Virus record (IMG/VR): IMGVR_UViG_3300031992_000005
Span: 160,001-224,000 of that record
DNA length: 64,000 bases
Origin: a virus
Reading direction: 5' to 3' (one strand)
In this document: positions 8,104 to 64,000 of the stretch, piece by piece
Layout: each line of letters starts with the position of its first letter
Numbering within the stretch: position 1 is the first letter of the stretch
Program-made: the position numbers and the translations under genes
Notes under the pieces: generated by a model
Told to the model about the DNA's origin: nothing
The model's database searches: none
Seen by the model: only the letters and a program-made list of their open reading frames with translations

Positions 8104-8105
8104 AT

Positions 8106-12545: not shown

Positions 12546-12547
12546 TA

Positions 12548-12775
12548 ATGGGATTAGTAAAATTTGAAGTAGAAATCCCAGACTTTGACAATGAATTAAC
12601 GATTTCAGTTACTTTAAAAAAGGACGGTGAAGTAGTAGAGGAAAATACTACTTCACTTCCTGATCAAAGTCAGGGGAAAAGAAAAATTGCCAGAACTAAG
12701 CCGGTTAATAATTCAGGGGGAACTGAAGCAAAACCGGCAAGAGTTGCTGGAAACTTAATGAACGAAGATTTCTAA
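12548..12775 (+). CDS. hypothetical protein (between RNAP subunit genes)
   Basis: From the ORF track. It starts 2 nt after the beta-prime stop. Confidence 0.5.
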   Translation: MGLVKFEVEIPDFDNELTISVTLKKDGEVVEENTTSLPDQSQGKRKIARTKPVNNSGGTEAKPARVAGNLMNEDF

Positions 12776-12783
12776 GAACGGCT

Positions 12784-13149
12784 ATGAATAAAAATAATGA
12801 TAGTTATTATTACAAAATAGTTTTGGCGTATGAAATACCATACAACGTCTTAGATAGTAACGATCCTGATAAGATCTTAGCTAGGGAGAATCTATATCAA
12901 GCGATAACTAAGATTATTCCCACTAGTAAGTATGATAAATTTTCAGTTAAACTTATGCTTTTTCAATTAAAGGATACGTTTAACTACGTGGTGATGTTTG
13001 ACTCTTTCTTTAGGTCTACAGAAGGTTTACCTATGAGTGAGTACACTGAGGCTAGTAAGATTAAACAGGCAGCTAAGGATGAACTAGAGAAATACTTTAA
13101 TTCACTCGACTGCGATTATAAACCACTGAATATAATTACATTATTATAA
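12784..13149 (+). CDS. hypothetical protein (between RNAP subunit genes)
   Basis: From the ORF track. Its stop overlaps the beta start (ATAATG). Confidence 0.55.
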   Translation: MNKNNDSYYYKIVLAYEIPYNVLDSNDPDKILARENLYQAITKIIPTSKYDKFSVKLMLFQLKDTFNYVVMFDSFFRSTEGLPMSEYTEASKIKQAAKDELEKYFNSLDCDYKPLNIITLL

Positions 13150-16100: not shown

Positions 16101-16310
16101 CTCATGGCATACTTGTCAAGAAATGCCAGAGATTTCATTAAGCTCTCTAGAGGAGATACCTCAAGAGAAGATAATCAGCTCTTCTTGAATAACCTCTTAG
16201 GTCTTGGTCTAACTGTTACAGACAGTAAGGGTTATAATCAGGGCGGTTCATCTCTCAAGAGTAGACTTGGTGAGATGAAGACTAAATTCAGACTAAAGAA
16301 TCAGAAATAA
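13149..16310 (+). CDS. multisubunit RNA polymerase beta-like subunit
   Basis: TNRYGGKGVISKILP (cf. SRHGNKGVISKI), VDIVMNPYSTINRKIPS (cf. LNPLGVPSRMN) and GQIIGEMELMAYLS (cf. GEMEVWALEAYG). Uninterrupted, 1053 aa. Confidence 0.85.
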   Translation: MSNFNQFFKNQGAKTMVERFFTGIDEYTPNKKLTNLTWHLAEEDKRPASYFIENGLTATHKVILEYTINYDDEIRTSEFEVPREIDGVFIIEGAYRIATNNLGKDYDCRINMSGTGRQYINFDYGREYDIKTGILKIKRVNPDLGLPEKVREYKLDEIDELSGIEKEVLKLSERQRKKFQVKLDIDYSPDYISKKLIEDCIAYGDDRIRDLIIDKKIDSVPVGFMKYIFNGGNNKNFYGTKSQLRNYWSKQGKLQDQINVLTNLCARYWKGSSSKKKGEDNDVQVSPGVNAMNLESITNKIYIPETVAYNTTFSDLICVGATPNNGNIGKQNALTVSTHITDEDVLFDCYTTKFQKITIPYLDYLNHKVCASEYVDYDTNTVKPDKDGKVEVKHRMRRKMVPVEEIELIDLHPDYRLSEEVRRIPFVNFTDSVRICMGSGMLKQAIPLVNAERPLVDTGNYEELHTNVLNERFKEESGVVKDVNEEGVLIELPNKDEILIPRKTAIQSINDVDVFTEPKVKKGQKVKKGDVITGAVGLEEDTYKMGINALVLFHAMFGDVNEDALVVSESFSKKMHSYSVIDLIYEVRTNEAIKWIAPIGQQVKSKDPVMMTYKAVKLDLVNKALNDKLGGIFGDQKLDLSEYTIESNLEVPNDIDEAYVSDVRIQENLHPRVPGGTKRPDLTYAHTSEETIKDYNFDRKIIYDRYPEYIAADRLKDISLADKDYKIVYVVRIRLIKRTNLMIGSKVTNRYGGKGVISKILPDDKMPIMVESATGNKKVVDIVMNPYSTINRKIPSVNMESLLGSIAHRIHDIVDERKNDKKKQETIMPLVQKYYPGRFDGMTLEKFLKLHENSKLEDVYYFNVGSYSRLTPKQIDEWAKELGVTPQSKILMPSDTIADLDELKANLSEEEYNTAVKNLTGRYVEVEKPLSVGYMTMEELYQIPTYSDKVTSSMFGVDVNEWVDSPIMGRGGYRKTGQIIGEMELMAYLSRNARDFIKLSRGDTSREDNQLFLNNLLGLGLTVTDSKGYNQGGSSLKSRLGEMKTKFRLKNQK

Positions 16311-20385: not shown

Positions 20386-20458
20386 CGCGGGATGGAGCAG
20401 TTGGTAGCTCGCCAGCCCCATAAGCTGGAGGTCGGGGGTTCGAATCCTTCTCCCGCAA
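20386..20458 (+). tRNA. tRNA-Met (CAT), initiator-like
   Basis: Cloverleaf is CGCGGGA-TG-GAGC/AGTTGGTA/GCTC-G-CCAGC/CCCATAA/GCTGG-AGGTC-GGGGG/TTCGAAT/CCTTC-TCCCGCA-A. It has a C1.A72 mismatch as in bacterial tRNA-fMet. No CCA is encoded. Confidence 0.85.
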
Positions 20459-22710: not shown

Positions 22711-23038
22711 CGAAGAATATTTAAACATTCCAATTAGTAAAGTAGCAATTGACTTAGCTTATAATAATCACGGGTACAGTGTCTTTTATAACGTATTAAT
22801 GAGAGTAGCTAAGCTATATAAGGGAGGAGATCCCCTCTTATTGAGAAGAATTATTGAAGACATTGCCTTGAAACACTCTAAGAGTATATACTACGGGAAA
22901 ATATGTGGAATATCAGGACAAGATTATTTTCCTAGTAGTATGGCTGAATTCATTCAACATACTCTTCTGAGATACATGGTTGTAGCTGAATTGGAATGGA
23001 ATATTAGTGGCATAATAAGTGAAAGATATGAACGATGA
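22700..23038 (+). CDS. hypothetical protein
   Basis: From the ORF track. It overlaps its neighbours at both ends (operonic). Confidence 0.5.
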   Translation: MRYNEEYLNIPISKVAIDLAYNNHGYSVFYNVLMRVAKLYKGGDPLLLRRIIEDIALKHSKSIYYGKICGISGQDYFPSSMAEFIQHTLLRYMVVAELEWNISGIISERYER

Positions 23039-25028
23039 ACAATATATGTTTGTATTTGATTCGGATGAAGAAAGAATAGCTCACGAAGAGGGAGACACTT
23101 ATACGGAACCATATGTCTCCCTTATTCGGGGAACGGATCAAGTACGTTATAATAGTGAAGGGGTAGAAGTGACTTACTTAATTCCCCAAAATATATGGAA
23201 TGGTCCAGGAATTTATCCTTTCTGGGCTGGAACTACAACGACAGACTACCCTTTTAATAGAATACTGGTTGATGGAAAAGACTCCTATGATATAGAAGAT
23301 CTTAATCCAAAGACCGGGGTTTTTTTTAATACCCCCGGAGTACATACAGTTAGATTTTTCTTAACTGATAAGACATTCTTTGGAAATACTGATAATAAGC
23401 CATTTTTTGAAAATATTCCATTAATGGTTTTAGGGATAAAATTTCCGAATACATTAACTGAAATTGGGGATAATTTATTAGCTGGTAGTGGTCAATACAT
23501 AGAACACCTAGTAATACCAGAAGGAGTTACTACGATAGGAAATCATGCATTTCCCGTTTGTGTAAAATTAAAGTCCCTTAGCCTTCCAAGTACATTAGTA
23601 AGTATTGGTACTGCAGCATTTCTTGCTATGGGATATGAAAATGAATCACCACTAAATATAGTATTACCTAACTCTGTTACTACTATAGGTACCGATTGTT
23701 TTCAGGATGCTAAGATAGGTTCAATTATATTGAGTTCTTCCTTAGAGAGAATTCCAGAGAGAGCATTTATGAATTGTACTTATTTAACAAGAATTGTTAT
23801 CCCTTCTAGTGTAGTTGATATTTTTGATCGTGCTTTTTATGGAGATACTTTACTGAGTACAGTTGAATTGTTTGAGGGAGAATTAGATTATATTGGAGTA
23901 AAGTCTTTTTTCGGGTGTCCAATTAATCGTCTTGTCATACCAGAGGGAGTAATTAGTTTGGGTTCAAATTTCATAACAAGCCATGAGTTAGAAACTTTAG
24001 TAATACCTGACTCTGTTACTGAAATAGATGGAAATTATTCATCACCCCTCTTTAGAGAAGAGGATGAAATTATTGTTCATAATCTAAAAATTGGCTCTGG
24101 ATTTCCATTTACTCACGGGTATACTTTAGGAATTCATCAAGTGGGAACTGTCGAATATAGTGGAAATACTATACCAGACCATTTTATTAGTAATAATTTC
24201 GGTAGTGTTGATGAAATTAAGTTAACAGGTTCTCCAACTACAATTGGAGAGAGTGCTTTTAGAGGATTTTATGGTGAGTACTTAGATTTACCACAGAGTA
24301 TAACTACGCTTGGGAGAGGTGCTTTTAGAGATTGTCCTGATTTGAAGAAGCTTATCATACCCCCATTAGTTACAGAATTACCTCCTGCTTTGTGTATGGG
24401 AAACAATTCCCTTAAAGAAGTTATTTTACCGAGGAACCTAGTATCTATGGGTGATAGTGCATTCTCTGATTGTATTTTTACTGAAATTACCCTACCTAGT
24501 ACGTTAACTTCTATAGGAGTCGAGGCTTTCCCTTATACTTTAAAAACAATAAATATACCAGCTAATATAAATCTACAGTATGTAGGAACTGGATCTTTGA
24601 CTGAAATTAAGTGGTATTCAACTTTAGTCGGTGAAGTATATATAGGAAAAGTATTAATTAAGCCAGTATTAGATTTGCAAGGTAGATATGTAGTCAAAGA
24701 GGGGACGACAAAAATATGTGATAAGACTTTTCAAAACTCAACATCATTGGTACGTGTAACTTTGCCAAGTACCCTAGTAGAGATAGGTGAGCATGCATTT
24801 GCTGGTTGTAGAAATTTATCTATTATAGTAAGCAATGCAGTGGAAGCACCTTTAGCTGAATATAGGGCATTTGGAGATAGCAGAGAAGGATATGCAGGTG
24901 CAGCTGGTAGTGTAAATCCAGGTACTAATAAATTATATGTTCCAATAGATGCAACTGGTTATGATCAAGATGAATGGTCAGTATTAATAAATGAATCTAA
25001 AGGAGGATTTCAAATTATAAATGGCTAA
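23019..25028 (+). CDS. BspA-type leucine-rich-repeat protein, putative tail fibre/receptor-binding protein
   Basis: Many repeats of the form IPEGVTTIGNHAF..C..L.S..LP.S (LRR_5-like). The true start is probably ATG 23028. Confidence 0.75.
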   Translation: MKDMNDEQYMFVFDSDEERIAHEEGDTYTEPYVSLIRGTDQVRYNSEGVEVTYLIPQNIWNGPGIYPFWAGTTTTDYPFNRILVDGKDSYDIEDLNPKTGVFFNTPGVHTVRFFLTDKTFFGNTDNKPFFENIPLMVLGIKFPNTLTEIGDNLLAGSGQYIEHLVIPEGVTTIGNHAFPVCVKLKSLSLPSTLVSIGTAAFLAMGYENESPLNIVLPNSVTTIGTDCFQDAKIGSIILSSSLERIPERAFMNCTYLTRIVIPSSVVDIFDRAFYGDTLLSTVELFEGELDYIGVKSFFGCPINRLVIPEGVISLGSNFITSHELETLVIPDSVTEIDGNYSSPLFREEDEIIVHNLKIGSGFPFTHGYTLGIHQVGTVEYSGNTIPDHFISNNFGSVDEIKLTGSPTTIGESAFRGFYGEYLDLPQSITTLGRGAFRDCPDLKKLIIPPLVTELPPALCMGNNSLKEVILPRNLVSMGDSAFSDCIFTEITLPSTLTSIGVEAFPYTLKTINIPANINLQYVGTGSLTEIKWYSTLVGEVYIGKVLIKPVLDLQGRYVVKEGTTKICDKTFQNSTSLVRVTLPSTLVEIGEHAFAGCRNLSIIVSNAVEAPLAEYRAFGDSREGYAGAAGSVNPGTNKLYVPIDATGYDQDEWSVLINESKGGFQIING

Positions 25029-28000
25029 TAAAAAATATATGCATAGGTTCAGTACTACAGTGGATAGACTGAACTATGAAGATAATCCTACTATCTACAC
25101 CGAGCCTTATCTTAGTGTAGTAGAGGAAAACAAACTAACAGTATATTATAATAAGTCAAGTGCAGAAACTGGATATCTGAAATTTACTCAACTTGGAGAA
25201 GATGGTGGTACAATTGGTATTATTGAAAATAATAATAATATCAACTTAGAATATTCTTTCGATGGGAAAATCTGGATTCCCTTTCCAGTATCTGGGTTAT
25301 TTTTGAATAGTGGTGAAAGTGCTCTCTTAAAGGGAAATAATACTACAATATATCCAGCTAGATTTACAATGACTGGATTAGTGAGAGCCTCTGGTAGTAT
25401 AATGTCTATTCTCTACGGCGAATCTTTCAAAGATAGTACTACTATTCCATCAGAGAATTGTTTTCAAGGATTATTTTCAAACTGTACTTCACTTACTTTT
25501 GCCCCTGAACTTCCCGCTACAACTTTAACGGAAGGTTGTTATGCAGCTATGTTTCAGGGCACTAGTATAACTAATTTCCCAACTTTACCTGCTTCATATG
25601 TACCTAACGGATCTTATGCTAGAATGTTTTTTGACTGTACGAATCTTAGGGGTACTGGTTATATATCAGCTCTAACTAGTGAGGAAAATTCGTTCTTTAG
25701 GATGTTTTCGAGAGCAGGTTTACAAGGGGAATTAACTATAGTTAGACCACCTAATGCTACTTGGCCAGTTGAAGAGTTTATAGGAGAGGGCGTTAATGTA
25801 ACATCAGTTCCAGACGAAAATGATAAGATCCAGGTAAGAAGATTGTATAAGACCGAAACAAAGTATTCTACTGATAATGGTAGTGTAGGAAATTTATACT
25901 ATGACGATGAAGAGTGGTATGAGTATGTAGGAAGACATGTAATCGATGGACATAGCTATTATTTGTGGGAAAAGAATGATAATAGGAGTAGTGGAAGTGA
26001 GCGGAATTCTGTTATGAAGCGTTATGCAATAACAGAAAATAGATACCCTACGTGTGATCTTGAATATCCATATACACCTCTAGGTTTCTTAACAAGCGAT
26101 TTTGATGCTAGTTATTCGGGTCCTGATATTAGTGACACTTTTTTTGTTTACTACGATTCACAAAACGATAGGTTGTATAAAGAGGCACTTAGTTACTTAG
26201 GACCAGACCTAGTAGATTGGTATGAATATTCGAACCCAATTATTATTGATGGGTATACATATCATGCGTGGAAAAAGAAAACTTCTTCTAGGGTCGAGGG
26301 AGAACACCTTATTAACACTGCAGGTACTACACGACCTTCTCATTTCTACCTTTTACTTGATACATTAAACCCTGTATGTAGTGGTAGTAATCCAATTACT
26401 GCATTAGGGTATTTGAGACCTGATCAGTCTATGTATTTTATGAATTCTGGGTCTGATTATATCATCAAGTATGATAGTCGGACGCTAGGTTGGAAAAGAT
26501 GGTGTAGGGCAGAGAACAACGAAACAGGCGCATATGCAGAATTTTTTACAATAGATGGATATAGCATTGAGTATGAGACTTTACGTAGTGTTTTCTTGGA
26601 TCAATTAGACGGTATCGCTGGGATAAAGCTAATTATTGGGTATGAAGGTTTATTAGATATTAATCTTGAGTTATTAGGGCTTTCTAGTCTAGTAAAAGAT
26701 TTAGTCCTAGTTGGTTCTCTAAAAAGTTGTAAAATACCTGGCATTAATTCACTACAGACATTAAATCTAGAAAATTCATCTATAACCGATCTTAATATTT
26801 CAAGTGGAAGTACTAATCTAAGAAGTATTGTTTTTCCACCTAACTTAGAGTTTATTGGAAGTATTAAGGAAACTGCGATGAGTGAGCTTGTAATACCTCC
26901 TACTGTAAAATATATAAGTTCTCATGCCTTTACGGGAAGCACACGTTTAAATAATGTGGTTTTATCAAGTGGATTGTCTGGTATTGGATCTGAAGCATTT
27001 GAAGGGTGTACTTCATTGGAAGAAATTGTTATTCCGAGAAGTGTTATTTATTTAGGGACAAACTTATTTTCTGATAGTGGGTTAAAAACTGTAGTTGTTA
27101 ATGCAAGTATTAAGTCTCTTCTTAAAGTCTTTAATGATTGCCCTAATTTATCCCAAGTAACTCTACCAGAGTGTTTGGAAAACATAGGTAACTATTGTTT
27201 TAGTTACTGTACTCAACTGACGAGTATTAATCTACCTAATGGATTAAATAGTCTAGATGACCATGCATTTTCGGCTTCAGGAATTACATCTATACAAATA
27301 CCCCCTCAGGTTAATGTTATAGGTAGTAGTGTTTTCTATGATTGCTCTGAACTTACCGATGTAGAGATACAGACTACCAATAATACTGTCGAGGTCCAAA
27401 AGAATGCTTTTTATAACTGTACTAAATTGACGCATATTAATTTAGAAAAATTAACAACTATAGACGAATATGCATTCTGTAATTGTAATAGTTTAACTTC
27501 TGTTAATTTAGAGAAAATTTCTACAATTAAGGCCAATGCTTTTGCGAGGTGTACTTCTTTAACCGATGTTAGCATTTCATCTCCAGTAACTAGAGTAATC
27601 TCCAGTAATACTATCTTTCCTAACTGTGATAATATAAAAACAGTTTATATCAATTGTACAAACTTTAGTACTTCAATTTTTTCCACAACTTCATTGAATA
27701 GTGTGGAGGAAGTTATACTTGGAACTAAGTGTTCATCTATTCCTGGAAAATTTACTAACTTCGCTAATCTTAGGTCTGTCATAATACAAGGAAATCTAAT
27801 AAGGTCTTTAGGTTTAAATTTATTTAAGGGTTGTACTAATCTGACCTCGCTTGAGATACCATCTTCTGTTACGAGTATTGGGTCTAATGCTTTTAAGGAA
27901 AGCGGTTTAGAAGAAATAACTATTCCAGATTCAGTAAAAACTATATCTTCTCATGCTTTCGACGGATGTACTAGTTTGGCGAGAGTTAGTGTTGGATCTG

Positions 28001-28620
28001 GCTTAACAAATGTTGGTGATAGTTCATTTGGTAACTGCTCTTCTCTAGAGTATTTATATGTTAATAATTCTAATATCGCCTTATATGATCTCGGATTGGA
28101 TGGGACAACAAATATTAAAGAAATTGTATTAGGTGACTTAGTTAATAGGGAATTTCTTGACTCTGGTCGTCTTGAATTACGAGAATATGAGCCTAATATA
28201 GAAACCTTTACTTTTGGTGCGGGCTTTGATAGACTTTGCAAAAAATTTTTCAAGAAGTGTACTAAATTGAAGTCTGTTACTCTTGGTAAAAACATGACTT
28301 CTATAGAAGAAAACGCCTTTCTTGGGTGTACTATGTTACCATCCATTGTTATTCCTGCGTCTGTAACTAGTATTGGTGAGTATGCTTTCTCAGATTGTAT
28401 TAGACTAAAGGATATCACTTCAAAAAATCCAACTCCACCAACAGTAGCGGATAATACTTTTGGAACTGGTCAGCCAGATAATGGATTTACTGGTCGAAAT
28501 ACATATAACCAGAATGTTAATAAACTTCATGTGCCTAAGGGAGCAACTGCCTATAATACTGCTTGGAGTAGGTTGTTGGTTTATTATTGGTCAGGATTTA
28601 CAGTAGAATACAATGGATAA
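25021..28620 (+). CDS. large BspA-type leucine-rich-repeat protein, putative tail fibre/receptor-binding protein
   Basis: 1199 aa. It has an N-terminal module shared with 23019 and 45748, an internal duplication (...WYEY...IDG.SY..W.K...) and a long LRR_5-like array. Confidence 0.75.
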   Translation: MANKKYMHRFSTTVDRLNYEDNPTIYTEPYLSVVEENKLTVYYNKSSAETGYLKFTQLGEDGGTIGIIENNNNINLEYSFDGKIWIPFPVSGLFLNSGESALLKGNNTTIYPARFTMTGLVRASGSIMSILYGESFKDSTTIPSENCFQGLFSNCTSLTFAPELPATTLTEGCYAAMFQGTSITNFPTLPASYVPNGSYARMFFDCTNLRGTGYISALTSEENSFFRMFSRAGLQGELTIVRPPNATWPVEEFIGEGVNVTSVPDENDKIQVRRLYKTETKYSTDNGSVGNLYYDDEEWYEYVGRHVIDGHSYYLWEKNDNRSSGSERNSVMKRYAITENRYPTCDLEYPYTPLGFLTSDFDASYSGPDISDTFFVYYDSQNDRLYKEALSYLGPDLVDWYEYSNPIIIDGYTYHAWKKKTSSRVEGEHLINTAGTTRPSHFYLLLDTLNPVCSGSNPITALGYLRPDQSMYFMNSGSDYIIKYDSRTLGWKRWCRAENNETGAYAEFFTIDGYSIEYETLRSVFLDQLDGIAGIKLIIGYEGLLDINLELLGLSSLVKDLVLVGSLKSCKIPGINSLQTLNLENSSITDLNISSGSTNLRSIVFPPNLEFIGSIKETAMSELVIPPTVKYISSHAFTGSTRLNNVVLSSGLSGIGSEAFEGCTSLEEIVIPRSVIYLGTNLFSDSGLKTVVVNASIKSLLKVFNDCPNLSQVTLPECLENIGNYCFSYCTQLTSINLPNGLNSLDDHAFSASGITSIQIPPQVNVIGSSVFYDCSELTDVEIQTTNNTVEVQKNAFYNCTKLTHINLEKLTTIDEYAFCNCNSLTSVNLEKISTIKANAFARCTSLTDVSISSPVTRVISSNTIFPNCDNIKTVYINCTNFSTSIFSTTSLNSVEEVILGTKCSSIPGKFTNFANLRSVIIQGNLIRSLGLNLFKGCTNLTSLEIPSSVTSIGSNAFKESGLEEITIPDSVKTISSHAFDGCTSLARVSVGSGLTNVGDSSFGNCSSLEYLYVNNSNIALYDLGLDGTTNIKEIVLGDLVNREFLDSGRLELREYEPNIETFTFGAGFDRLCKKFFKKCTKLKSVTLGKNMTSIEENAFLGCTMLPSIVIPASVTSIGEYAFSDCIRLKDITSKNPTPPTVADNTFGTGQPDNGFTGRNTYNQNVNKLHVPKGATAYNTAWSRLLVYYWSGFTVEYNG

Positions 28621-29541: not shown

Positions 29542-29627
29542 GCCGGGATGACGGAATGGGTGAGACGTGACAGATTTAAAATCTGTTGGCTATTGCAGCC
29601 GTGTGGGTTCGAATCCCATTCCCGGTA
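29542..29627 (+). tRNA. tRNA-Leu (TAA)
   Basis: Acceptor is GCCGGGA/TCCCGGT and the anticodon arm is ACAGA/TTTAAAA/TCTGT. The long variable arm is GGCTATTGCAGCC and the T-arm is GTGGG/TTCGAAT/CCCAT. Confidence 0.85.
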
Positions 29628-39734: not shown

Positions 39735-39810
39735 GGGCCTTTAGCTCAGTTGGTCAGTTAGCAACACGCTCATAACGTGGAGGTCGTGGGTTCAAGTCCC
39801 TCAAGGCCCA
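39735..39810 (+). tRNA. tRNA with CAT anticodon (elongator Met or Ile2)
   Basis: Acceptor is GGGCCTT/AAGGCCC and the anticodon loop is CTCATAA. The T-arm is GTGGG/TTCAAGT/CCCTC. Confidence 0.8.
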
Positions 39811-45747: not shown

Positions 45748-47004
45748 ATGGAAGAATATATAAAATATTTTGAAACTCAAGAAGAGTATGATGAGTATGT
45801 AACAAGTGGAAATATGAAAAACCCCAATGTATCTTATTGTGAAGATGTTAAGGATGTGCATTATAATCCTTGGACTTGGGCTGATGAATATTTTACAACA
45901 GTTGCATTGGAGAATGGCACGATAACGTTAAACGTACCAGGACATATAGATACACATAATATTTCGTATGTTTCTTATTCAATAAATGGTGGAGCATCAT
46001 GGGTTGACACTGTTGATGTAAATGACTTTGTGGAAGAAACCCCAATAACTATCAATGTTTCTAAGGGTGATGCAATTTTGTGGAAATGTGGAAGTAAGTA
46101 TTATGAAATTCCAAGTGGACTTGGTGGGTGCTTTTTCTCATCTACGTGTAATTTTAACGTAATGGGAAATATAATGTCATTGGCATGTGGTGACAACTTT
46201 AAGGGAGCAAATAGAGGTTCAGAATTTAGCAACTTATTTAAAGATGTTAATGGGAACAAAGAGTGCCTTTTGGTAGATGCATCAAATCTTATCTTTCCAG
46301 CAGTATCTATTGGCTGTAAATCAATGTTTAGTGGCTGTACGAGCTTAGTAAAAGCTCCAAAACTTCCCGCTACTACATTATTGTACTACCAATGTTATTA
46401 TAGTATGTTCCAAGGTTGTACTTCATTAACTACCGCTCCTGAACTTCCTGCTACAACATTAGTTAGTGATTGTTATAGTAGTATGTTCTCTAATTGTACA
46501 AGTTTAACTACCGCCCCTGAGCTTCCCGCTACTACGTTGGCAGACCACTGCTATAGTAGCATGTTCAGTGGTTGTATCTCATTAACTACTGCACCTGAAC
46601 TTCCTGCTACAACGTTGGCAGATTATTGTTATAGCGGTATGTTCAAAGGTTGTACTTCATTAATTGCTGCACCTGAGCTTCCTGCAACGACATTAAGTAG
46701 TAGCTGCTATAGCTGTTATCAGAGTATGTTCGAAGGTTGTACAAGTTTAACAACTGCTCCTGAGCTCCCTATAATAAATCTTAATTCTAGTTATGGTTGT
46801 TATTGGAGAATGTTCTATGGTTGTACAAGTCTTAATTATATTAAAGCGATGTTCACAACAGAACCTTCTTCAGCATATACAAGAGATTGGGTTGATGGTG
46901 TTTCTGCAAATGGTACATTTGTGAAAAATGCAAATGCAACATGGGATGTAAGTGGAACTAATGGTATTCCGACCGGTTGGACAGTAGAAACAGTGACAGT
47001 ATAA
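45748..47004 (+). CDS. repeat protein (GCTSLTTAPELPATTL...CY..MF units), putative fibre/receptor-binding protein
   Basis: It has 7-8 tandem units of about 24 aa. The same unit occurs in 25021..28620 (NCTSLTFAPELPATTLTEGCYAAMF). The N-terminal module is shared with both LRR proteins. Confidence 0.65.
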   Translation: MEEYIKYFETQEEYDEYVTSGNMKNPNVSYCEDVKDVHYNPWTWADEYFTTVALENGTITLNVPGHIDTHNISYVSYSINGGASWVDTVDVNDFVEETPITINVSKGDAILWKCGSKYYEIPSGLGGCFFSSTCNFNVMGNIMSLACGDNFKGANRGSEFSNLFKDVNGNKECLLVDASNLIFPAVSIGCKSMFSGCTSLVKAPKLPATTLLYYQCYYSMFQGCTSLTTAPELPATTLVSDCYSSMFSNCTSLTTAPELPATTLADHCYSSMFSGCISLTTAPELPATTLADYCYSGMFKGCTSLIAAPELPATTLSSSCYSCYQSMFEGCTSLTTAPELPIINLNSSYGCYWRMFYGCTSLNYIKAMFTTEPSSAYTRDWVDGVSANGTFVKNANATWDVSGTNGIPTGWTVETVTV

Positions 47005-51920: not shown

Positions 51921-51994
51921 TAATCCGAGAGGGATTCGAACCCTCGACCCCAACATTAAAAGTGTTGTGCTCTGGCCAACTGAGCTATCGAATT
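51921..51994 (-). tRNA. tRNA-Lys (TTT)
   Basis: Cloverleaf is AATTCGA-TA-GCTC/AGTTGGCCA/GAGC-A-CAACA/CTTTTAA/TGTTG-GGGTC-GAGGG/TTCGAAT/CCCTC-TCGGATT-A. The promoter motif ctcatatataaggtttt is directly upstream. Confidence 0.85.
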
Positions 51995-53211: not shown

Positions 53212-53285
53212 TGATCCGGAAGAGATTCGGACTCTTGACCTACAGTTTAGAAGACTGTTGCTCTATCCAGCTGAGCTACCGGACC
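53212..53285 (-). tRNA. tRNA-Arg (TCT)
   Basis: Cloverleaf is GGTCCGG-TA-GCTC/AGCTGGATA/GAGC-A-ACAGT/CTTCTAA/ACTGT-AGGTC-AAGAG/TCCGAAT/CTCTT-CCGGATC-A. A family hairpin terminator lies at 53151-53179. Confidence 0.85.
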
Positions 53286-54375: not shown

Positions 54376-54458
54376 TGCGCCTGACAGGACTCGAACCTGC
54401 ACGTCACCGAGACACTTGATCCTAAGTCAAGCTTGGCTACCAATTACAACACAGGCGC
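54376..54458 (-). tRNA. tRNA-Leu (TAG)
   Basis: Acceptor is GCGCCTG/CAGGCGC and the anticodon arm is CTTGA/CTTAGGA/TCAAG. It has a long variable arm, and the T-arm is GCAGG/TTCGAGT/CCTGT. Confidence 0.85.
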
Positions 54459-56861: not shown

Positions 56862-56938
56862 AGAATTAAAAAAATTAAATATTATTTACAATACAAAAGT
56901 AAGGCATTGAGGGGAGAAAAAAAATACCCCTTCAGAAA

Positions 56939-57369
56939 GGGGATAATGCCTTATATATGTAATTTATATTATCTTTCATACATGTTTACTAAAGGGGATC
57001 GTCCGTGATGGATATATCCCCTCATTTTTTTGTTCAAAAAAAATAGGATCGAGATATACATATTACTATGTATAACCCTGACTGACTATTCTTTTTGAGA
57101 TTTATTATACTCTATATATATCTATTTATAAGGCATTAAGGGGAGAAAAAATACCGCCCCAGAAAGAGAAAAATGCCTTATATATAGAAACAGACGCATA
57201 ATAATTTAATTTCATAATAATAACTAGGGGATCGGTTCGTGATGAATAGATCCTTTTTTTTTCATATCCCTTTAATGCTTTATATATGATCATAAAAAAT
57301 ATTTTTTTAAGTTTGAAAATAATGATTGGAGGATCAGTCCGGGATGGATAGATCCTCTTTTTTTTTTTG
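56939..57369. repeat. four ORF-less mini-cassettes (three on +, one on -)
   Basis: + promoters are at 56939, 57170 and 57267, with family hairpins at 56993-57022, 57226-57255 and 57328-57357 plus T-runs. The - promoter is at 57110-57145, with a hairpin plus U-run at 57036-57075. Confidence 0.55.
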
Positions 57370-57403
57370 TTCAAAAAAAATCCCCCGACACGGGGATTCC
57401 TTT

Positions 57404-57655
57404 TTATACACTTACGTTGAAGCCTAGGATATATTTATAAAATAAATCAGAGATCCTTTCATATATGCTTGGCTTTCCTGTGTAAAATTTTAATACTGAT
57501 CTTCCACTCTTAGTTAGTTTCCATGTTTCACCACTTGGAGAAACTGAAACGCTAATGTAGCCAAGCCTTAGTAATTCATCTACGTCTACTAAGCTTTCAA
57601 TGTCCTTCAATAGGCCTTTAGTTGAACTTAAAGCGTCTTTTAAATTTTTATTCAT
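57404..57655 (-). CDS. hypothetical protein
   Basis: From the ORF track. Its terminator is aatccccgtgtcgggggatt plus a U-run, with the promoter-like cccctcttaatacctt upstream. Confidence 0.55.
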   Translation of the reverse strand: MNKNLKDALSSTKGLLKDIESLVDVDELLRLGYISVSVSPSGETWKLTKSGRSVLKFYTGKPSIYERISDLFYKYILGFNVSV

Positions 57656-57702
57656 AATTGTTAGGTGTTGTGTTTATATACTCTTAAGGTATTAAGAGGG
57701 AA

Positions 57703-57848
57703 GAAAAAAAAAGAGAGGGGAACCCGTTTTAGAGAGTTGACTGATCGTCTGTGCGTCTGTGGGTTCCCCGGAGTGCAGCTGAGCCCGTCCTTTCGATCAT
57801 CGGCGGGGTCCGATCTGCTGCAATTTTCTAAAATCTAATTCCTTTATG
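57703..57848 (-). ncRNA. candidate G+C-rich structured ncRNA of unknown class with own promoter and terminator
   Basis: The - strand promoter CCCCTTAAATCCTTATATATG is at 57851-57871. Stems are TGCAGC/GCTGCA, ATCGG/CCGAT and GGGGAACCC/GGGTTCCCC plus a U-run. It is strikingly GC-rich in an AT-rich context and has no ORF. Confidence 0.5.
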
Positions 57849-57850
57849 TT

Positions 57851-57871
57851 CATATATAAGGATTTAAGGGG
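57851..57871 (-). promoter_or_regulatory. phage promoter-like consensus (- strand)
   Basis: Reverse complement is CCCCTTAAATCCTTATATATG. Confidence 0.5.
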
Positions 57872-57885
57872 ATTTCAGATTCTTC

Positions 57886-58497
57886 AAAAAAAAGAGAGGA
57901 TCTATCCGTCTCGGACCAATCCTCTAAAAATTATTTAACCTAAATATGATTGTTATGAATGTTTTACATATATAAGAGTTTAAGGGGATAAAAAAAAGAG
58001 GATGACCTATCACAGGCGACCCTCTTCTTCAATAACAAAAATTTAAATCTTTAAATCTATGGATATAATATACAACATATATAAGGGTTTAAAGGGATAA
58101 AAAAAAGAGGAGATCTATCCATCTCGGACTGATCTCCACCTGACATCTGAATATACATCATACTAAAATGAGAGTATTACACGTTAATAAGGAATTAAGG
58201 GGATAAAAAAAAAGAGAATCTATCCATCTCGGACTGATCCTCTAATAAGAAACATTCTATTAATTCTTAAACTTTTACATATATAAGAATTTAAGGGGAT
58301 GAAAAAAAAAAAGAGAATCTATCCATCACGAACTGATCCTCTTCAGAGTAAAATAAACATTACACGTACATATATAAGGCATTTAAGGGGTATAAAAAAA
58401 ATGACCGACTCATCACGAGCCAGCCATTGAATAATTTTTGAACTTTTTTTACCCAAGAAAAATAAGTACTTTCATTTATAAGAATTTAAAGGGATTT
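57886..58497 (-). repeat. tandem array of six ORF-less mini-cassettes directly downstream of polA
   Basis: Period is about 100 bp. Promoter motifs are at about 57967, 58073, 58175, 58272, 58363 and 58470. Family hairpins are at 57894-57925, 57998-58027, 58107-58137, 58214-58243, 58313-58344 and 58402-58426, each with a U-run. Confidence 0.6.
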
Positions 58498-58545
58498 GAG
58501 AAAATAGACCAGCCCCACATTAAAGGCTGGCCCACAGAATTAATA

Positions 58546-58935
58546 TTATAGTCGGTGAAACCTAACGGTCACCTTTGATACATCCATCGATATAGAACAA
58601 CCATTTTCTAAGATTGTTCTGTAATATGGATCTTCAATCATCTTCTTTTCTGATACTAGCTCTTCCCTAGTCTTATCACATTCACACCTGATACTAGGGG
58701 AATTCATTAATTTGTCATAAATTAATATAAGATTACTAGCAGGACCAGAAAATTCTATCGTATTTTTGTCTATCTGCGTTAATGGACATGCAGATTCATA
58801 TCCATATCCACACAAAAGATCAAACAGTAACTTTATCTTTGGCCCAATAGTTGCACAATAATCCGTATATTTTTCATCATAATATGCCCTAATATCAAAT
58901 ATGTGATCTATTGGAATAAGATTAGTATTAGAATC
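58546..58935 (-). CDS. polA: family-A DNA polymerase, last exon
   Basis: Begins DSNTNLIPIDHIF..., and joining to ...QPIITVH restores motif C (VHD). The first 4 codons of ORF 58546..58947 are intron. Confidence 0.65.
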   Translation of the reverse strand, partial: DSNTNLIPIDHIFDIRAYYDEKYTDYCATIGPKIKLLFDLLCGYGYESACPLTQIDKNTIEFSGPASNLILIYDKLMNSPSIRCECDKTREELVSEKKMIEDPYYRTILENGCSISMDVSKVTVRFHRL

Positions 58936-59237
58936 CGTTCTCTTCACATAAATTCGCTACATTTATGCCGGGCAATGCCACAGCTAATCATCTCTGATTA
59001 GACGAGACTATATCTTCAGTAAATAATTACTGCCTACTTTTTCGAACACCCATCGCTTGTGCTCTACTCTACTCACTTCTTCAGGTTTCCCCTATGCTTT
59101 CGATAGTCGTTGAATAAGTTTATAACTTACTGCTGATTGACTCTATTCATTGGATTTTTACTTCTATTCGATAGTACCAATGACCTAACAAGTTGTTCCA
59201 GCAATTAAGTAGGTTTATAGTGCACCATAAACTAACA
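58936..59237 (-). mobile_element. group I intron, ORF-less (polA intron 5)
   Basis: P1 is GUGCAU/GUGCAC with U.G at 59238. It has the Q element AATCAGCAG, CGACTATCG ... AAGATATAGTCTCG and terminal G at 58936. It is homologous to the ends of intron 60663..62159. Confidence 0.7.
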
Positions 59238-59637
59238 ATGCACTGTAATAATAGGTTGTAATGGTTGCTTCCAACCATCTTTAATTGATGACCTAATATT
59301 ATTAAAGAATCCACTAGCCATAATTGTACTAGTTCCTCCTTGAATAGGTAAATTTACACCTAATCTTTTGATTCTGGCAATTATATTTTGCGCTTCTTTT
59401 TGATCTTTTGCTTTTGGCAAATATTCATAATACTCCCTTAACCTTAATTTGTCTCCTAACATGGTATTAATGTAACCATCATGATCTAATGGATACTGAC
59501 CCTGAGACTCCACATATTCCCTGAGCTTTGGAAAAGACTTATATAAACTCTGGATAATATTCTCAGCTTCTTCAACAGAACTATCTAGTCGAGCTGCTAA
59601 GGAATTTTTCCCTAAGCCGTACAATACACCCAAGAAT
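59238..59637 (-). CDS. polA: family-A DNA polymerase exon (fingers/motif B)
   Basis: Reads (I)FLGVLYGLGKNSLAARL... and NLPIQGGTSTIMASGF (cf. N.PIQGSAAD), ending ...IITVH. Confidence 0.8.
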
Positions 59638-59932
59638 CATTACTACTCATAATTTCTTATGAGATTAGACTATATCATTATCCGATTATTCGGATAGGTT
59701 GCACTTCGGAATAGAGAATTTCACTCTAAACCTACTCCTCGGTTAAAATTATTTTAACGTCATAGGATAGTCGTTACACTTTCTTAGACTAATCTAAGCT
59801 TAGCACGGTATTGGCATATCTTATTATTAAGACTTAGCTTTCCACCGTTAGCACTAATAAATTAGTACACCCTAGATTTCTAGGTTCACAACCTTTTCAT
59901 TAACTAATTACTTAGTTATGCCACATCTATCT
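59638..59932 (-). mobile_element. group I intron, ORF-less (polA intron 4)
   Basis: P1 is CCAU/GUGG with U.G at 59933. It has AACGACTATCCTATGACG ... AATGATATAGTCTAATC and terminal G at 59638. It is near-identical in core to nrdD intron 3. Confidence 0.7.
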
Positions 59933-60080
59933 ATGGTCTTGAATTTCTTTCTATAAGTCTTTTGTTCTTTTTTACTAAGGTTATTCCAACCTTCTTCACC
60001 TAAATATAGTTTCGAACTATATATGTATATGTCTTCTCCAGCGTTGAACTTACTTATTAGATCAGGATCCAAAGACGCGT
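59933..60080 (-). CDS. polA: family-A DNA polymerase exon
   Basis: Reads (Y)ASLDPDLISKFNAGEDIYIYSSKLYLGEEGWNNLSKKEQKTYRKKFKT(I), cf. Pol I ...S.D..L..AF..G.DIH..TA......R..AK..NFG. Confidence 0.7.
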
Positions 60081-60336
60081 CAATTTTGTTATCCTTAGAA
60101 CTTTTTATTTCTAAGTTCAATTGATTCTTAATTCTCAATTGTTCAGCATATATTTTCACCCTATTAGATAGGGTGGGGAACACTCGTGGTAGGATTATTC
60201 TATTCGTCACCTACTATGCGTTACACTACTAGGATACCTTTAATATTATCTTAGTTAGCACGGTATTGGCATCTCAGCTTTCACCGTTTTTGCTCCCTGT
60301 ACCCCGTAATATTACTATTACGGTGGGCAATTTTTT
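60081..60336 (-). mobile_element. group I-like intron, ORF-less (polA intron 3, same family as nrdD intron 2)
   Basis: P1 is GGGU/GCCC with U.G at 60337. It has GGGAGCAAAAACGGTGAAAGCTGAGATGCCAATACCGTGCTAAC. The 3' module CTTAGAAATAAAAAGTTCTAAGGATAACAAAATTG ends in G at 60081. Confidence 0.6.
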
Positions 60337-60350
60337 ACCCCGCGCTCTTA
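60337..60350 (-). CDS. polA: inferred 14-nt polA micro-exon
   Basis: TAAGAGCGCGGGGT supplies ..(I)KSAG(Y).. between two introns, which keeps the frame and motif A. Confidence 0.4.
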
Positions 60351-60647
60351 CAGATTGTTACCCTATAGGCTTTTTATCCTATAGTTCTATGGATTCATTT
60401 TATCCATAGCTCGGCATATATTTTCATCCTAGATAACTAGGATGACGGACACTCGTGGAGAGATTATATTTATTCACTCTCTATGCTCTACACTACTTAC
60501 TTAACCTTTCGCAATTTAAATAAGTTAGCACGGTATTGGCATCTCAGCTTTCACCGTTTTTGCCCGTTTATTATCACTTACATTACTATAAGTGACGGCT
60601 AAATTTTAACCTCGGCACTACTACATTGTGTTCAGGAGGCACGTTAC
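60351..60647 (-). mobile_element. group I-like intron, ORF-less (polA intron 2, same family as nrdD intron 2)
   Basis: P1 is GGAGAU/GCCUCC with U.G at 60648. It has GGGCAAAAACGGTGAAAGCTGAGATGCCAATACCGTGCTAAC. The 3' module CTATAGGATAAAAAGCCTATAGGGTAACAATCTG ends in G at 60351. Confidence 0.6.
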
Positions 60648-60662
60648 ATCTCCCGGTTCTCA
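60648..60662 (-). CDS. polA: inferred 15-nt polA micro-exon
   Basis: TGAGAACCGGGAGAT supplies (I)ENRE(I). Its Glu aligns with the conserved motif-A Glu (DYSQIELR). Confidence 0.4.
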
Positions 60663-62159
60663 CTTAGCTAAAACTAAGATGAACTCCTACATATCTCTAT
60701 GCAGATCAGACTATATCTTAATCTCATTTCTGAGATTCTTACCGTTTCCACTTAACGATTTCAAGTGTACTCCCATTACTGGGATAGTCGTTGGGGTTTA
60801 AGAATTTAATCAGTTAGTCGGGCTGATTTTCTTTTATTTTTTGAATAAGGACATTACTGTCTGTAATTACTTCAGTGAAATATCCATATTTTTCGTAAAT
60901 TTTTATTTCATTAGTGAAATATAATAATGGTATATTATTTTTCTTAGCATAATCGTACTTCAGATGATCCCTTTTTATAGCAATTTCTGAATAACGTTTA
61001 TCGTTAGGATCAAAATGTTGACACCCATGATACTCTACTAAGATATTATATTCTGGTAAATAAAAGTCAAACCTAAGATGTGATATATTCTTTAAATCTG
61101 GGTAAGTTTTCTCAGATGTAAATTCAATATTATTTCCCGTAAATAGGTCTGCCAAAAATAGTTCCCCATTAGAGTTAATGAGCGGGAATATGCTATCTTT
61201 ATCATCATCAGATAATAATAAGAACCTATAATAGCAATTACGAAATCTTCTATAAAAATCCTTCCTAGATAGGATATTATTGTCAGCAATAAATACCTTA
61301 AAATCTTCTACCGTATTAATATTAGAGTAATCTCTATTATTGTTTGGTAATAGACTTTCTTTCTCCTCTTTAGATAAGAGTCTACTAAATCTGCAATATA
61401 CTTGCTCAAATCTACGACAAAGATCTATTCTGGAGGTTATATTATTTTCTTGAATAAATGAACGAAAATCCTCATATGTATTTATATACGAATAATCTTT
61501 TAGCATACTAGGGAGAATTCTATTTTGATCTTCACTACTCAATTTAATAAACTTATTATATCCTCCTCGAAATCTTTTTTGAAAATCATAACGGCCTACA
61601 ATTTCGTATGTTTTAATGAATTTCCTAAAATCATCCTCAGTATTCAAAGTAGAGTAATCTGCCTTTTTTATAGTTCCTTTATAAGGTAAAATAGTTTCTT
61701 GCTCTTCCTTTGATAGAAAGTTTAAGAACCTAAGATAAGCCCCAGGATATTCAGTATGTAATGTTTTTCGAGAGTGAATATTATTAGTTTTAATAAACCT
61801 TTTAAAGTCGTTTGCAGTATTGAGATTAGAATAATTACCTAAGTTCGAAGGCAGTAATTTTTCTTGTTCATCATTACTTAATTTCTTGAAGCAATTATAA
61901 ACCTTTCTATACTCCTCTCTCAGCCTAGACCTCTTCTCAATACCATTATCTTTTATAAATTTTTTTATTTCCTCATAATCCATTTTTTTTTTAAATTTTA
62001 ATTTTTTTCGTTCTTCTTAAACCTGCTGATTAACTCTATTCCCTAGATTGTTACTGCCGTGACTAAATCGGCTAGTACTAGAGACCTAACAAGTCTTTCC
62101 AGCATTTAGTAAGTTTGTTTTTCATAAGGTCACCCTTATGTGACACTAGTTTCTAGTTA
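60663..62159 (-). mobile_element. group I intron with homing endonuclease gene (polA intron 1)
   Basis: P1 is GACAU/AGUGUC with U.G at 62160. It has the Q element TTAATCAGCAGG, CGACTATCC ... AAGATATAGTCTGATC and P9 CTGCATA-GAGA-TATGTAG. The terminal G is at 60663. Confidence 0.7.
60814..61983 (-). CDS. intron-encoded homing endonuclease, PD-(D/E)xK / Vsr-like (EDxHD-type) nuclease domain with 5 N-terminal tandem repeats
   Basis: It has five repeats of about 55 aa (N.x.DF+.FI..NNI.SR...). The C-terminus is ELFLADLF...LRFDFYLPEYNILVEYHGCQHF...KRDHLKYDYAKKNNIPLLYF. Confidence 0.65.
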   Translation of the reverse strand: MDYEEIKKFIKDNGIEKRSRLREEYRKVYNCFKKLSNDEQEKLLPSNLGNYSNLNTANDFKRFIKTNNIHSRKTLHTEYPGAYLRFLNFLSKEEQETILPYKGTIKKADYSTLNTEDDFRKFIKTYEIVGRYDFQKRFRGGYNKFIKLSSEDQNRILPSMLKDYSYINTYEDFRSFIQENNITSRIDLCRRFEQVYCRFSRLLSKEEKESLLPNNNRDYSNINTVEDFKVFIADNNILSRKDFYRRFRNCYYRFLLLSDDDKDSIFPLINSNGELFLADLFTGNNIEFTSEKTYPDLKNISHLRFDFYLPEYNILVEYHGCQHFDPNDKRYSEIAIKRDHLKYDYAKKNNIPLLYFTNEIKIYEKYGYFTEVITDSNVLIQKIKENQPD

Positions 62160-64000
62160 ATGTCAAAATATGTTAGTAATTGGTCATCCCCACCATATAT
62201 GATATTTCCATTTTTGTTCCGAATTGGAGCAGGAATTAAGCAATTTTTGACAGGGCTATGTGAGGGAATCGTATGAAAACTTGATGACCAGCGTTTACTT
62301 GATTTTTTGAGTACTTCGTATGGAGTAAAATTCTTCTTTACTGCTCCTGGTTCATCCGGATCTGCATCTCTAATTGGAATATGATGCTCATCTTCAATTA
62401 CCCATTTTGCCCTCTTATTAAACATTCCATCTGGACCTACATACACACTTAACATTTTCGCATGTTTCTTATATATGAGGTAGTTGAGTGTGAATTTTCT
62501 CATAAAGTAGAAATCATTACTGAGATCTACCTCAGGATCAAATGGGCTTTCATAATTTAAGTAATCACCCTGATACTCTGGAAAAAGTTGTGTTTGTGTG
62601 TTAAATCCAAGAAAATCTGTCCAAATTTCCTTTACTTTATCTGCGGTTTGATATAAAACTGTCTCTACACCTTTCACACTAACTTTTTTTCCAAGTTTAG
62701 GGCTACCATAAAATTCGAATGCTAGGTCAAATACTTTCTTCGGGTATAATGGGCTTTCGTATTCGCCATTACTGTCATAATACTTTTTCCATTCATCTAA
62801 CATTTCTTGATAACCTTCATCTATATCAGTAATACCTCTACTTGAATAGAATTTTGTTGTCTCAGGTAACTGCTGGATACTTTCTGACATGGCAGCTAAG
62901 AAAGCAGTTTTTCCTTTAAGTCCAGGAATGATAGGATTAACCATCATATCATATACGATTTTATCATTCTGTTCTGGACTAAGACACATGAAATAATTAT
63001 CAGATAGAAACTTAGAATACTCCAAGAGATCCATTTTCTTACCAAAGATATATATTTTCTCTGGGATATTATGAATATCCTTAAGCTGTTTTTTATTTAT
63101 TTTTTCCAGCTCAGTATATATCTTTCGATAATACATGTATTTCTCAAGTTCTATATGCTTCTTATTAATCTTTCCCTCTGAATCAAATTTAAGACTATCA
63201 ATTCCGAAGAGATGTATTGTTTTTTCTGCCAGGACCCCTAAGAATTTCTTTTTCCTAATAATACCTTCGTCGATCTTACCCTTTAACTTAACTTCGCTTG
63301 CAGCTTGTCTAACAAAATCTACGAATTTTTCTCCAAAGTCCTGTCCATATTTCATAACAAGTCCTCCCTCATTTAATCCAGTTTCTGTTGAATCTAGGTA
63401 ATCGAGATTACTTGTTAAGATATATTTTAAGATTTCAATTATATTACCTTGAAAAAAGTTTCCTTCTTCCAATAGTTTTACAGCAATTGGCTTATATCTC
63501 TTTATATTAGTAGCCAAGGATTGATGTTTTTGCATCTTTATCCAACAAAGAGCTCTAGTTGCCCAAGTACTAGACCAAGCCATCATCTCCTTACAATACT
63601 TTTCAAATCTAAGTCTGAATGGCTCATCTATATAGTGGCCATGTGACATAAGTCTTGCGCCAAGTCTCAGGTTATCTAAGAAAACGTTGAAACACTCTTC
63701 TGTATACTCAGACTTTTTCTTAAGATAAATCATAAGAGTATAGAATGAGTCAAGGCAGCAATACTTTCCTAAGATTTCACTTGGGATAGGCATGAATTGA
63801 TTTCCCCAATACTCTAAGATCAGTTCCTTAAATTCATCTTCATATCCAGGATATCTCTTACAAATTTCTCCCCATTCAGGAGTATTTGTAAAGTTTTCTG
63901 GGGTTACTTTTAATTCTAGGTGAATGTCCTTCTTAAGTTTACCAACTTCCTCCAATAGCATGTGTTCAATTAAGTCACTAAGTCTATCGAAGTCAGAATC
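62160..64000 (-). CDS. polA: family-A DNA polymerase, upstream exon (5' end outside window)
   Basis: The frame is open to the window edge (DSDFDRLSDLIEHMLLEEV...). It ends ...GGDDQLLTYFD(I) at the start of motif A. Confidence 0.75.

Follow-up and report, generated by a model that had tools for sequence, protein, structure and literature searches.

Five predicted group I introns in the family-A DNA polymerase gene of an uncultivated jumbo phage, three of them within ten codons of motif A

The stretch of DNA analysed here (the window) comprises 64,000 nucleotides (nt), positions 160,001 to 224,000 of IMG/VR record IMGVR_UViG_3300031992_000005. On its minus strand, from 58546 to 64000, lies what is very probably the family-A DNA polymerase gene (polA) of an uncultivated jumbo phage, interrupted by five group I introns, one of them with a homing endonuclease. 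A first-pass annotation had proposed the five introns, and the proposal was borne out by matches to the Rfam model RF00028, gap-free alignment to homologues, presence and absence of introns in near-identical relatives, compensatory changes in intron helices and a match to Pfam DNA_pol_A. Five of the six exon pieces delimited at that stage were right to the base, as judged by alignment to an intronless homologue and to a relative, L002; the remaining one, exon 2, had been placed at 60648-60662 and truly occupies 60609-60623. Contigs reaching past the window put the start of the gene, within exon 1, 822 nt beyond the window end, and the corrected model therefore yields a complete polymerase of 1209 amino acids (aa), with 3630 nt of coding sequence and 2647 nt of intron. 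The parts visible in the window are listed below in the order of the gene.

62160-64000, minus strand: exon 1 (visible part), ending ...TTTGACAT; alignment to the intronless relative L001 stops at 62160
60624-62159, minus strand: intron 1 (I1), group I, IA-like, 1536 nt, omega-G G60624
60814-61983, minus strand: homing endonuclease open reading frame (ORF), 389 aa, in the P6 loop of I1
60609-60623, minus strand: exon 2 as corrected, 15 nt, TAGTAGTGCCGAGGT, coding for (I)SSAE(V) of motif A
60351-60608, minus strand: intron 2 (I2), group I, 258 nt, omega-G G60351
60337-60350, minus strand: exon 3, 14 nt, TAAGAGCGCGGGGT, coding for (V)KSAG(Y)
60081-60336, minus strand: intron 3 (I3), group I, 256 nt, a paralogue of I2, omega-G G60081
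59933-60080, minus strand: exon 4, 148 nt, ending ...AAGACCAT within motif B (RKKFKT^I)
59638-59932, minus strand: intron 4 (I4), group I, 295 nt, omega-G G59638
59238-59637, minus strand: exon 5, 400 nt, from IFLGVLYG to ITVH, including NLPIQGGTS
58936-59237, minus strand: intron 5 (I5), group I, 302 nt, omega-G G58936
58546-58935, minus strand: exon 6, from DSNTN to the stop codon TAA at 58546-58548

All five introns interrupt catalytic motifs, three of them motif A, one motif B and one motif C (carets mark junctions). I1, I2 and I3 fall in motif A within 29 nt of mRNA, or ten codons (D^ISSAE^VKSAG^Y), and the sites of I2 to I5 lie 15, 29, 177 and 577 nt beyond that of I1 on the spliced mRNA. 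Motif B, in the O-helix, is split by I4 (RKKFKT^IFLGVLYG; its counterpart in the Taq alignment is RRAAKTINFGVLYG), and motif C by I5 (VH^DS), the Klenow alignment stopping exactly at that point. NLPIQGGTS, initially taken for motif B, is a different conserved block and is unsplit. Gene-calling software reads the locus as four to five unrelated ORFs: on one contig they measure 889, 389, 100, 133 and 133 aa. The first visible polA ORF (62153-63961, minus strand, 602 aa) terminates in TYFDIN and a stop, and contig L033 holds the complete exon 1 ORF of 889 aa. The five-intron sequence was present at 99.8-100% identity in three independent assemblies, and the arrangement is thus not an assembly artefact. 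Samples ENA ERZ27257202, ENA ERZ27257205 and JGI 3300032030 carry this genome.

Joined at the corrected boundaries, the exons form a single ORF reading ...TYFDISSAEVKSAGYASLDPD... with one terminal stop only. Exons 1 to 4 together restore motif A (DISSAEVKSAGY), and the spliced gene reads DISSAEVK, RKKFKTIFLGVLYG and TVHDS for motifs A, B and C. That splicing restores the three motifs had been claimed from the outset; this holds for B and C and, after correction, for A, the motif A first read (DIENREIK) being wrong because one micro-exon had been misplaced. The comparisons with Pfam, with Taq and Klenow polymerases and with homologues were made using the original 935-aa splice, which has the same length as the corrected one and differs from it at 4 residues. 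This product matched Pfam DNA_pol_A (PF00476) with an E-value of 5.4e-22 and 78.7 bits (cutoff 34.3). Alignments to Taq and Klenow ran across the junctions, through motif A (D...E) and the O-helix RxxxKxxxFGxxYG to an end at VH^D. Among 5.8 billion proteins searched there were many homologues without interruption (1180-1211 aa, 45-74% identity), many of them on contigs of 300-400 kb, and 20 of these aligned with the spliced product with zero gaps across all five junctions; the continuous alignment to family-A polymerases that was expected of a genuine spliced product was thus obtained with DNA_pol_A, Taq, Klenow and the 20 homologues alike. DISSAEVK was invariant in 17 uninterrupted homologues, exon 3 (KSAG(Y)) aligned to the homologue consensus VKAAGY, and, compared with the exon 1 product, the most abundant cluster of polA fragments (883 aa) showed only ~58% identity. 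Searches of INPHARED phages (megablast, tblastn) found no polymerase relatives, just short matches to the intron core.

RF00028, with which a search had been suggested in the first-pass annotation, matched all five elements, at five places between 58984 and 60889 on the minus strand. With E-values taken from an 8-kb search and a curated gathering score of 50, I5 scored above that threshold (63 bits, E = 1.6e-14), followed by I4 (49.6 bits, E = 1.6e-10), I1 (38 bits over the 3' half of the intron, E = 4.9e-7), I2 (38 bits, E = 4.9e-7) and I3 (17.2 bits, E = 0.82). I3 aligned with I2 over 216 nt at 76% identity (E = 7.6e-30), and its P3 was fully compensated relative to that of I2 (GGGAGC/GUUCCC vs ACGGGC/GUCCGU). 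The sequence blocks AATCAGCAG and GACTAT...GATATAGTC occurred in I1, I4 and I5, and a GCATAG...ATATGC variant in I2 and I3; P7 strands (GACUAU/AUAGUC or GCAUA/UAUGC) were located in all five introns. Every 5' exon ended in a U opposite a guide G (U.G in P1, with 3-7 exon and 1-3 intron base pairs, bp), every intron ended in G (omega-G), and an in-frame stop lay 1-8 codons past each 5' junction. These four features (U.G-bearing P1, terminal G, signature blocks and in-frame stops), already described at first reading, hold at the corrected junctions. All five introns also shared a large insertion between the P7 5' strand and P3', which we take to be P7.1/P7.2, the mark of subgroup IA in the Michel-Westhof scheme.

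P1 of I1 was UGACAU/GUGUCA (U62160-G62146), with a P10 of 4 bp (UAGU/ACUA) adjoining it in the guide; I2 had GGU^UAA/UUAGCC (U60609-G60599) and a 4-bp P10 (UAAG/UUUA), I3 GGGU/GCCC (U60337-G60328), I4 CCAU/GUGG with a P10 of 3 bp, and I5 AGUGCAU/GUGCACU. In the relative L020, a synonymous exon change at I4 (ACC to ACT) was matched by a change in the guide (GUGG to GUAG, that is, CCAU/GUGG to CUAU/GUAG), which supports P1. Using homologues from related loci, RNAalifold recovered P1, P2, P3 or P7, P4-P6, P7.1/7.2, P8 and P9 with extensions. The I2, I3 and I4 families were analysed separately because a joint MAFFT alignment misaligned P4-P6. Compensatory pairs numbered 13 out of 106 in the I1 family (RNAalifold, four homologues), 26 out of 69 in the I2/I3 family, 14 out of 79 in the I4 family (four sequences) and 19 out of 94 in the I5 family (five homologues at the same site). 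When the P3/P7 pseudoknot of I4 was written in by hand, 99.7% of cells paired, against 33-41% in slid controls, and the 14 double-change pairs fell to 0-1 when partners were slid by 1-3 columns.

Several observations weigh against reading these elements as five group I introns within a spliced polymerase gene. Four of the five RF00028 scores lie under the gathering score, and I3, at the bottom of the range, owes its group I assignment to homology with I2. P10 is weak in I3 (1 bp) and absent in I5 (0 bp). Each covariation set comprised no more than 4-5 related sequences, and pairs were counted on the same alignments that yielded the RNAalifold structures. The layout of I4 is atypical, its best P3 5' strand lying upstream of two hairpins that precede P4. 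Among the 5.8 billion predicted proteins there was neither a junction-spanning protein at 95% identity or more nor a near-identical intronless allele, and thus no spliced cDNA contig turned up. Exon skipping is also possible, because two exons measure only 14-15 nt.

The 5' strand of P3 in I4 (AGGUUGUG) pairs with UGCAACCU just before P8, whereas in I2 and I3 it stands directly before J3/4-P4. Covariation neither supports nor contradicts P3 of I4, since the helix is invariant in the four sequences.

Comparison with close relatives showed the introns to be polymorphic and their content nested: L001 has none, L003 (IMGVR_UViG_3300026549_000047) has I1 and I4 types at the sites used in the window, L002 and L020 have I1, I2 and I4 types, and the window has all five. 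Alignment to L001 breaks at 62160, 59932/59637 and 59239/58935; I2 is absent from L001 just as from L003. L002, 94% identical in exon 1, exactly lacks I3: it reads TAAATCAGCAGGT^TACGCCAGT where the window reads TAAGAGCGCGGGGT, 256 nt of intron and ACGCGTCT, the same amino acids being encoded with seven synonymous differences. I3 is absent from L020 too. Overall, at least eight insertion sites are in use in this polA family, and another relative, L005 (IMGVR_UViG_3300012979_000028, 7000-15000), carries seven RF00028 matches in polA (33-64 bits).

Exon 1 of the window differs from that of L002 by 89 synonymous and 12 nonsynonymous codons, which places polA under purifying selection. Identity to L002 was 77% in exons 3 and 4 but 94-96% in the others, and the differences crowd into ~85 nt after the I3 site. 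This co-conversion-like pattern is the one expected if recombination had brought in I3, and a co-conversion tract with it, from a diverged donor.

Two further features of the relatives were observed. In L005, two of the RF00028 matches stand in tandem (12541-12800 and 12829-13104) with another micro-exon between them. L003 has an additional 136-nt insertion in polA (12227-12362), 3 nt downstream of the I5 site of the window and absent from L001, which is 96-99% identical. The last base of the insertion is G, and that of the exon before it is U. A P1 of 6 bp (CAUGAU/GUCAUG) is present, as are the sequence blocks AAUUGCUGG...AAUCAGCA and GACUGU...ACAGUC. RF00028 did not recognise it, and it may represent a miniaturised group I-like intron, far below the usual size.

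A different view of the same gene is that polA is a decaying pseudogene, that its insertions are, in part or in full, dead remnants of introns that no longer splice and that replication is served by another polymerase. The sub-threshold scores of four introns, the want of an endonuclease in four, the weak P10 in I3 and I5 and the failure to find a spliced product in databases would all fit with decay. The exons, however, are under purifying selection, as the excess of synonymous differences attests, all catalytic motifs are intact after splicing, intron helices keep pairing through compensatory changes and the arrangement is conserved in three samples. In addition, metatranscriptomes of Jug (jumbo gut) phages back the splicing of 37 out of 76 predicted introns of this general kind (PMC12880540). 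We therefore regard decay as improbable, and a functional, intron-bearing polA as the better account; that its introns are spliced is what we infer from the sequence and from comparison among alleles.

The position of exon 2 separates the corrected gene model from the initial one, in which exon 2 was 60648-60662 (TGAGAACCGGGAGAT), I1 ended at 60663 and I2 began at 60647. That model predicts a spliced reading of ...GACATTGAGAACCGGGAGATTAAG..., keeps the frame, gives the right motif A spacing against Taq and produced the 935-aa protein that matched DNA_pol_A and Taq; a G (G60663) stands just before the piece and a T (T60648) at its end. The error was hidden by the reading frame, both versions of the exon being 15 nt long. 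The true exon 2 lies 39 nt further on, which moves the end of I1 to G60624 and the start of I2 to 60608. L003 has an I1 homologue at the same site, whose tail TGAGAACCGGGAGAAGTAACGTACCTCTTGAACACAAATG is followed directly by TAGTAGTGCGGAAGTAAAGGCAGCTGGG, coding for (I)SSAEVKAAG; in the window, the I1 tail ...GAACACAATG ends at 60624 and is followed by TAGTAGTGCCGAGGT at 60623-60609. Since the two share this tail before the SSAEV exon, 60648-60662 is intron sequence, and its equivalent precedes an intact SSAEV exon in L020 as well. L003 and L001 both read TAGTAGTGCGGAAGTAAAG directly in the exon 2 region, and L001, 96-99% identical to L003, lacks the entire I1 stretch including the tail and hence any counterpart of 60648-60662.

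Protein and RNA evidence agree with this placement. The initial splice gives DIENREIK, against the DISSAEVK that the corrected splice shares with the 17 homologues, and exon 2 differences among the window, L002, L020 and L003 are confined to third codon positions. The 60648-60662 piece forms the 5' strand of a P9.2 hairpin (CGGGAG/CUCCUG) conserved in four homologues (RNAalifold). The I1 guide ACUA^GUGUCA pairs both with the six nt that close exon 1 and with the four that open the corrected exon 2, but makes no P10 with the piece chosen earlier. The P1 proposed with that piece has an A.C mismatch beside the splice site, and at the corrected start of I2, U60609 pairs with G60599 in the hairpin taken as the first stem by the Rfam alignment. 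In L002, moreover, the base preceding the superseded exon is C, not G. The comparative data have already refuted the initial placement of exon 2, and we see next to no chance of its being right.

One other junction was considered and rejected: splicing after the end of the Rfam model at G60687 (D-M-S-S-S) is followed by an in-frame TAG, and the difference in length between the window (39 nt) and L002 (37 nt) marks the stretch as non-coding.

The number of introns would fall to four if I2 and I3 were one intron that had recently been duplicated in tandem, or that assembly had wrongly doubled, a notion invited by their 76% identity over 216 nt, by the mere 14 nt that part them and by the presence of only one of the two in L002 and L020. 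Such identity is too low for collapse or expansion of short reads, and the three independent assemblies agree at 99.8-100%. The two introns have separate P1 helices, each fitting the exon that precedes it, P3 and other helices are compensated between them, and the intervening 14 nt code for the expected KSAG(Y). The flanks of I3 carry the block of synonymous differences from L002 described above, typical of import from a diverged donor. Five separate introns thus remain the preferred count, and a true count of four appears highly unlikely. That the interruptions might be inteins, group II introns, recoded stops or programmed frameshifts is hardly credible: both inteins and recoded stops occur in related gut phages (PMC7886860), but these insertions hold stops throughout all frames (the longest open stretch in I2-I5 being 53 aa), have no group II or other Rfam match and show indels in the I1 tail between close relatives that are not multiples of three (39 vs 37 nt), and the long ORFs that run throughout the window read in the standard code, on which ground stop-codon recoding was rejected.

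The 389-aa ORF in I1 is flanked by the P6 strands GUUUAAG/CUUAAAC and matches phrog_9084, annotated 'homing endonuclease' (5e-19). Sequence searches of Pfam, NCBIfam and PDB gave no match for it, and a fold search was therefore needed to place it. Its 87 homologues came mostly from contigs of 300-400 kb, and an AF2 (AlphaFold) model built from 33 of these (predicted local distance difference test, pLDDT, 88.9) consisted of five N-terminal helical repeats of ~55 aa followed by an alpha/beta domain. For the C-terminal domain, Foldseek returned Vsr (1cw0/1vsr, probability 1.00) and the catalytic domain of I-Bth0305I (3r3p, probability 0.99, template modelling (TM) score 0.69-0.75); the weak E-values (0.01-0.35) reflect a search with the entire multidomain protein. 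D306, E317, H323, D339 and K342 were invariant in the 33 homologues. The predicted structure supports assignment of the C-terminus to the Vsr-like/EDxHD-type PD-(D/E)XK nuclease domains. The nuclease domain would share its catalytic fold with I-Bth0305I (EDxHD, PDB 3R3P), sequence identity being just 13-14%; the N-terminal repeats differ from I-Bth0305I. I-Bth0305I is likewise encoded within a phage group I intron. I2 to I5 hold no ORF, their longest stop-free stretch being 53 aa, and the early observation that only one intron carries a homing endonuclease stands. In an L001-type intronless allele, the candidate target region of the enzyme reads ...TTTGATATCAGTAGTGCGGAAG....

In the mechanism we propose, in which self-splicing, the order of splicing and the activity and target of the endonuclease are all presumed, polA would be transcribed as one precursor, and each intron would fold into a P1-P9 ribozyme. 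The guide would pair with the last 3-7 exon nt, with the U.G wobble at the cleavage site; exogenous guanosine would attack the 5' splice site, and the freed exon would then attack after the terminal G, so that six ligated exons would restore motifs A, B and C. The I1 endonuclease would presumably cut intronless polA alleles near motif A during co-infection and so drive homing, and for the ORF-less I2 to I5 the most probable means of spread are recombination, carriage within co-conversion tracts, or endonucleases supplied in trans.

A bolder interpretation, which we put forward as speculative and rather unlikely, is that the stack of three introns in motif A, the nested presence and absence and the fresh I3 tract could reflect an ongoing contest between co-infecting jumbo phages, intron stacking being an interference or defence trait, not passive parasitism. 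The I1 endonuclease would then cut the intronless polA of competitors, ORF-less neighbours would hitch-hike in its co-conversion tract, and an extra insertion, by destroying the site of another homing endonuclease, would act as immunity. Intron-mediated competition has been described for PhiKZ-like phages.

Whatever drives their accumulation, polA introns of this kind have precedents. The polymerase genes of SPO1, Bastille and Bastillevirinae and Twort orf142 likewise bear self-splicing IA-type introns in conserved polymerase motifs (PMC11878797). Some introns of cultured phages carry a homing endonuclease in a peripheral loop, and small internal exons and exon skipping are reported, the latter for phages Twort and SIOphi as cited in PMC11878797. 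Cultured-phage genes contain one to three introns (three in Twort orf142), whereas polA of the window has five, and three of these crowd into ten codons of motif A with no more than 15 and 14 nt of exon between neighbours. The phage that hosts this gene is, unlike the cultured intron-bearing phages, an uncultivated jumbo phage of ~354 kb (the longest contig on which the window's proteins recur unchanged measures 353,905 bp) with no INPHARED relative. Against cultured phages, with a maximum of two or three introns per gene (PMC11878797), the initial description of polA as unusually dense in introns is apt. Within its own clade it is not, as seen from the seven RF00028 matches in L005 and from the Jug phages (PMC12880540).

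Jug phages (PMC12880540; preprint PMC12363816) are described as having genomes of 360-402 kb, the standard code and a mean of 18.5 group I introns per genome, with fragmented nrdD, terL and DNA polymerase genes. The window matches this description in its standard code and its split nrdD and polA, a likeness that makes its phage no more than a candidate Jug phage, and also in a multisubunit RNA polymerase gene, BspA-type leucine-rich repeat (LRR) proteins and polA homologues on ~400-kb IMG/VR contigs. Comparable intron densities are found in crAss-like Zeta phages; in the Zeta/Delta group one major capsid protein (MCP) gene is in five fragments, and there are up to 14 introns per genome (PMC7886860). 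The crAss-like phages belong to a different order, the genes affected are different (PolB, MCP) and many have recoded stops as well as introns; recognition of those introns relied mainly on endonuclease domains, whereas four of the five polA introns here are ORF-less (PMC7886860). Outside phages, fungal and placozoan cox1 is likewise a highly conserved gene in which neighbouring group I introns leave very short exons between them (PMC5436844, PMC12308204); those micro-exons are mitochondrial and their splicing is often maturase-assisted, whereas here exons of 15 and 14 nt lie in a phage gene.

Intron crowding as such has already been reported for giant gut phages; the details of most interest here are the micro-exons in motif A and the presence/absence series with its co-conversion tract. 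Resolving a single gene to the base adds to what has been published on intron-rich jumbo gut phages. Exons of 15 and 14 nt are invisible to protein-based methods, and even a careful reader misplaced one of them with the frame kept. The natural allele series (intronless, then three, three and five introns, and a relative with seven RF00028 matches) makes it testable how group I introns accumulate at adjacent catalytic-motif sites of an essential gene, whether ORF-less introns ride on the endonuclease of a neighbour, and how ribozymes 14-15 nt apart fold and splice without skipping the micro-exons.

Directly downstream of the polA stop, 56880-58510 holds an array of about nine units of ~100 nt, each with, on the minus strand, a GC-containing hairpin (GAGGATC...GATCCTC), a T-run and a conserved ATCCCCTTAAA...TTATATATGT block. 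The units look like repeated terminator/promoter-like or small-RNA units, and they produce spurious 'KKKRIYPSRTDP' ORFs.

At the other end of the window, nrdD (plus strand, 1-3642) is seemingly also split by several group I introns: a LAGLIDADG-like ORF (807-1637) and an I2-like core (1646-1824) are followed by two RF00028 matches, one of 39.8 bits at 1942-2235 and one of 35.2 bits at 2355-2695. Its C-terminal exon (2701-3642) matches Pfam NRDD (6.8e-80) and is followed by the NrdG activase gene (3646-4143). Beside nrdDG, a 546-aa TnpB/Cas12f-like protein is encoded at 4494-6134 on the plus strand (Pfam Cas12f1-like_TNB, 1e-16). A gene for a multisubunit RNA polymerase beta-like protein lies at 13149-16310, and large BspA-type LRR proteins are encoded on the plus strand at 23019-28620 and 45748-47004 (Pfam LRR_5, E-values down to 1.5e-101). 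Six tRNA genes are distributed over both strands (20386-20458, 29542-29627, 39735-39810, 51921-51994, 53212-53285 and 54376-54458).

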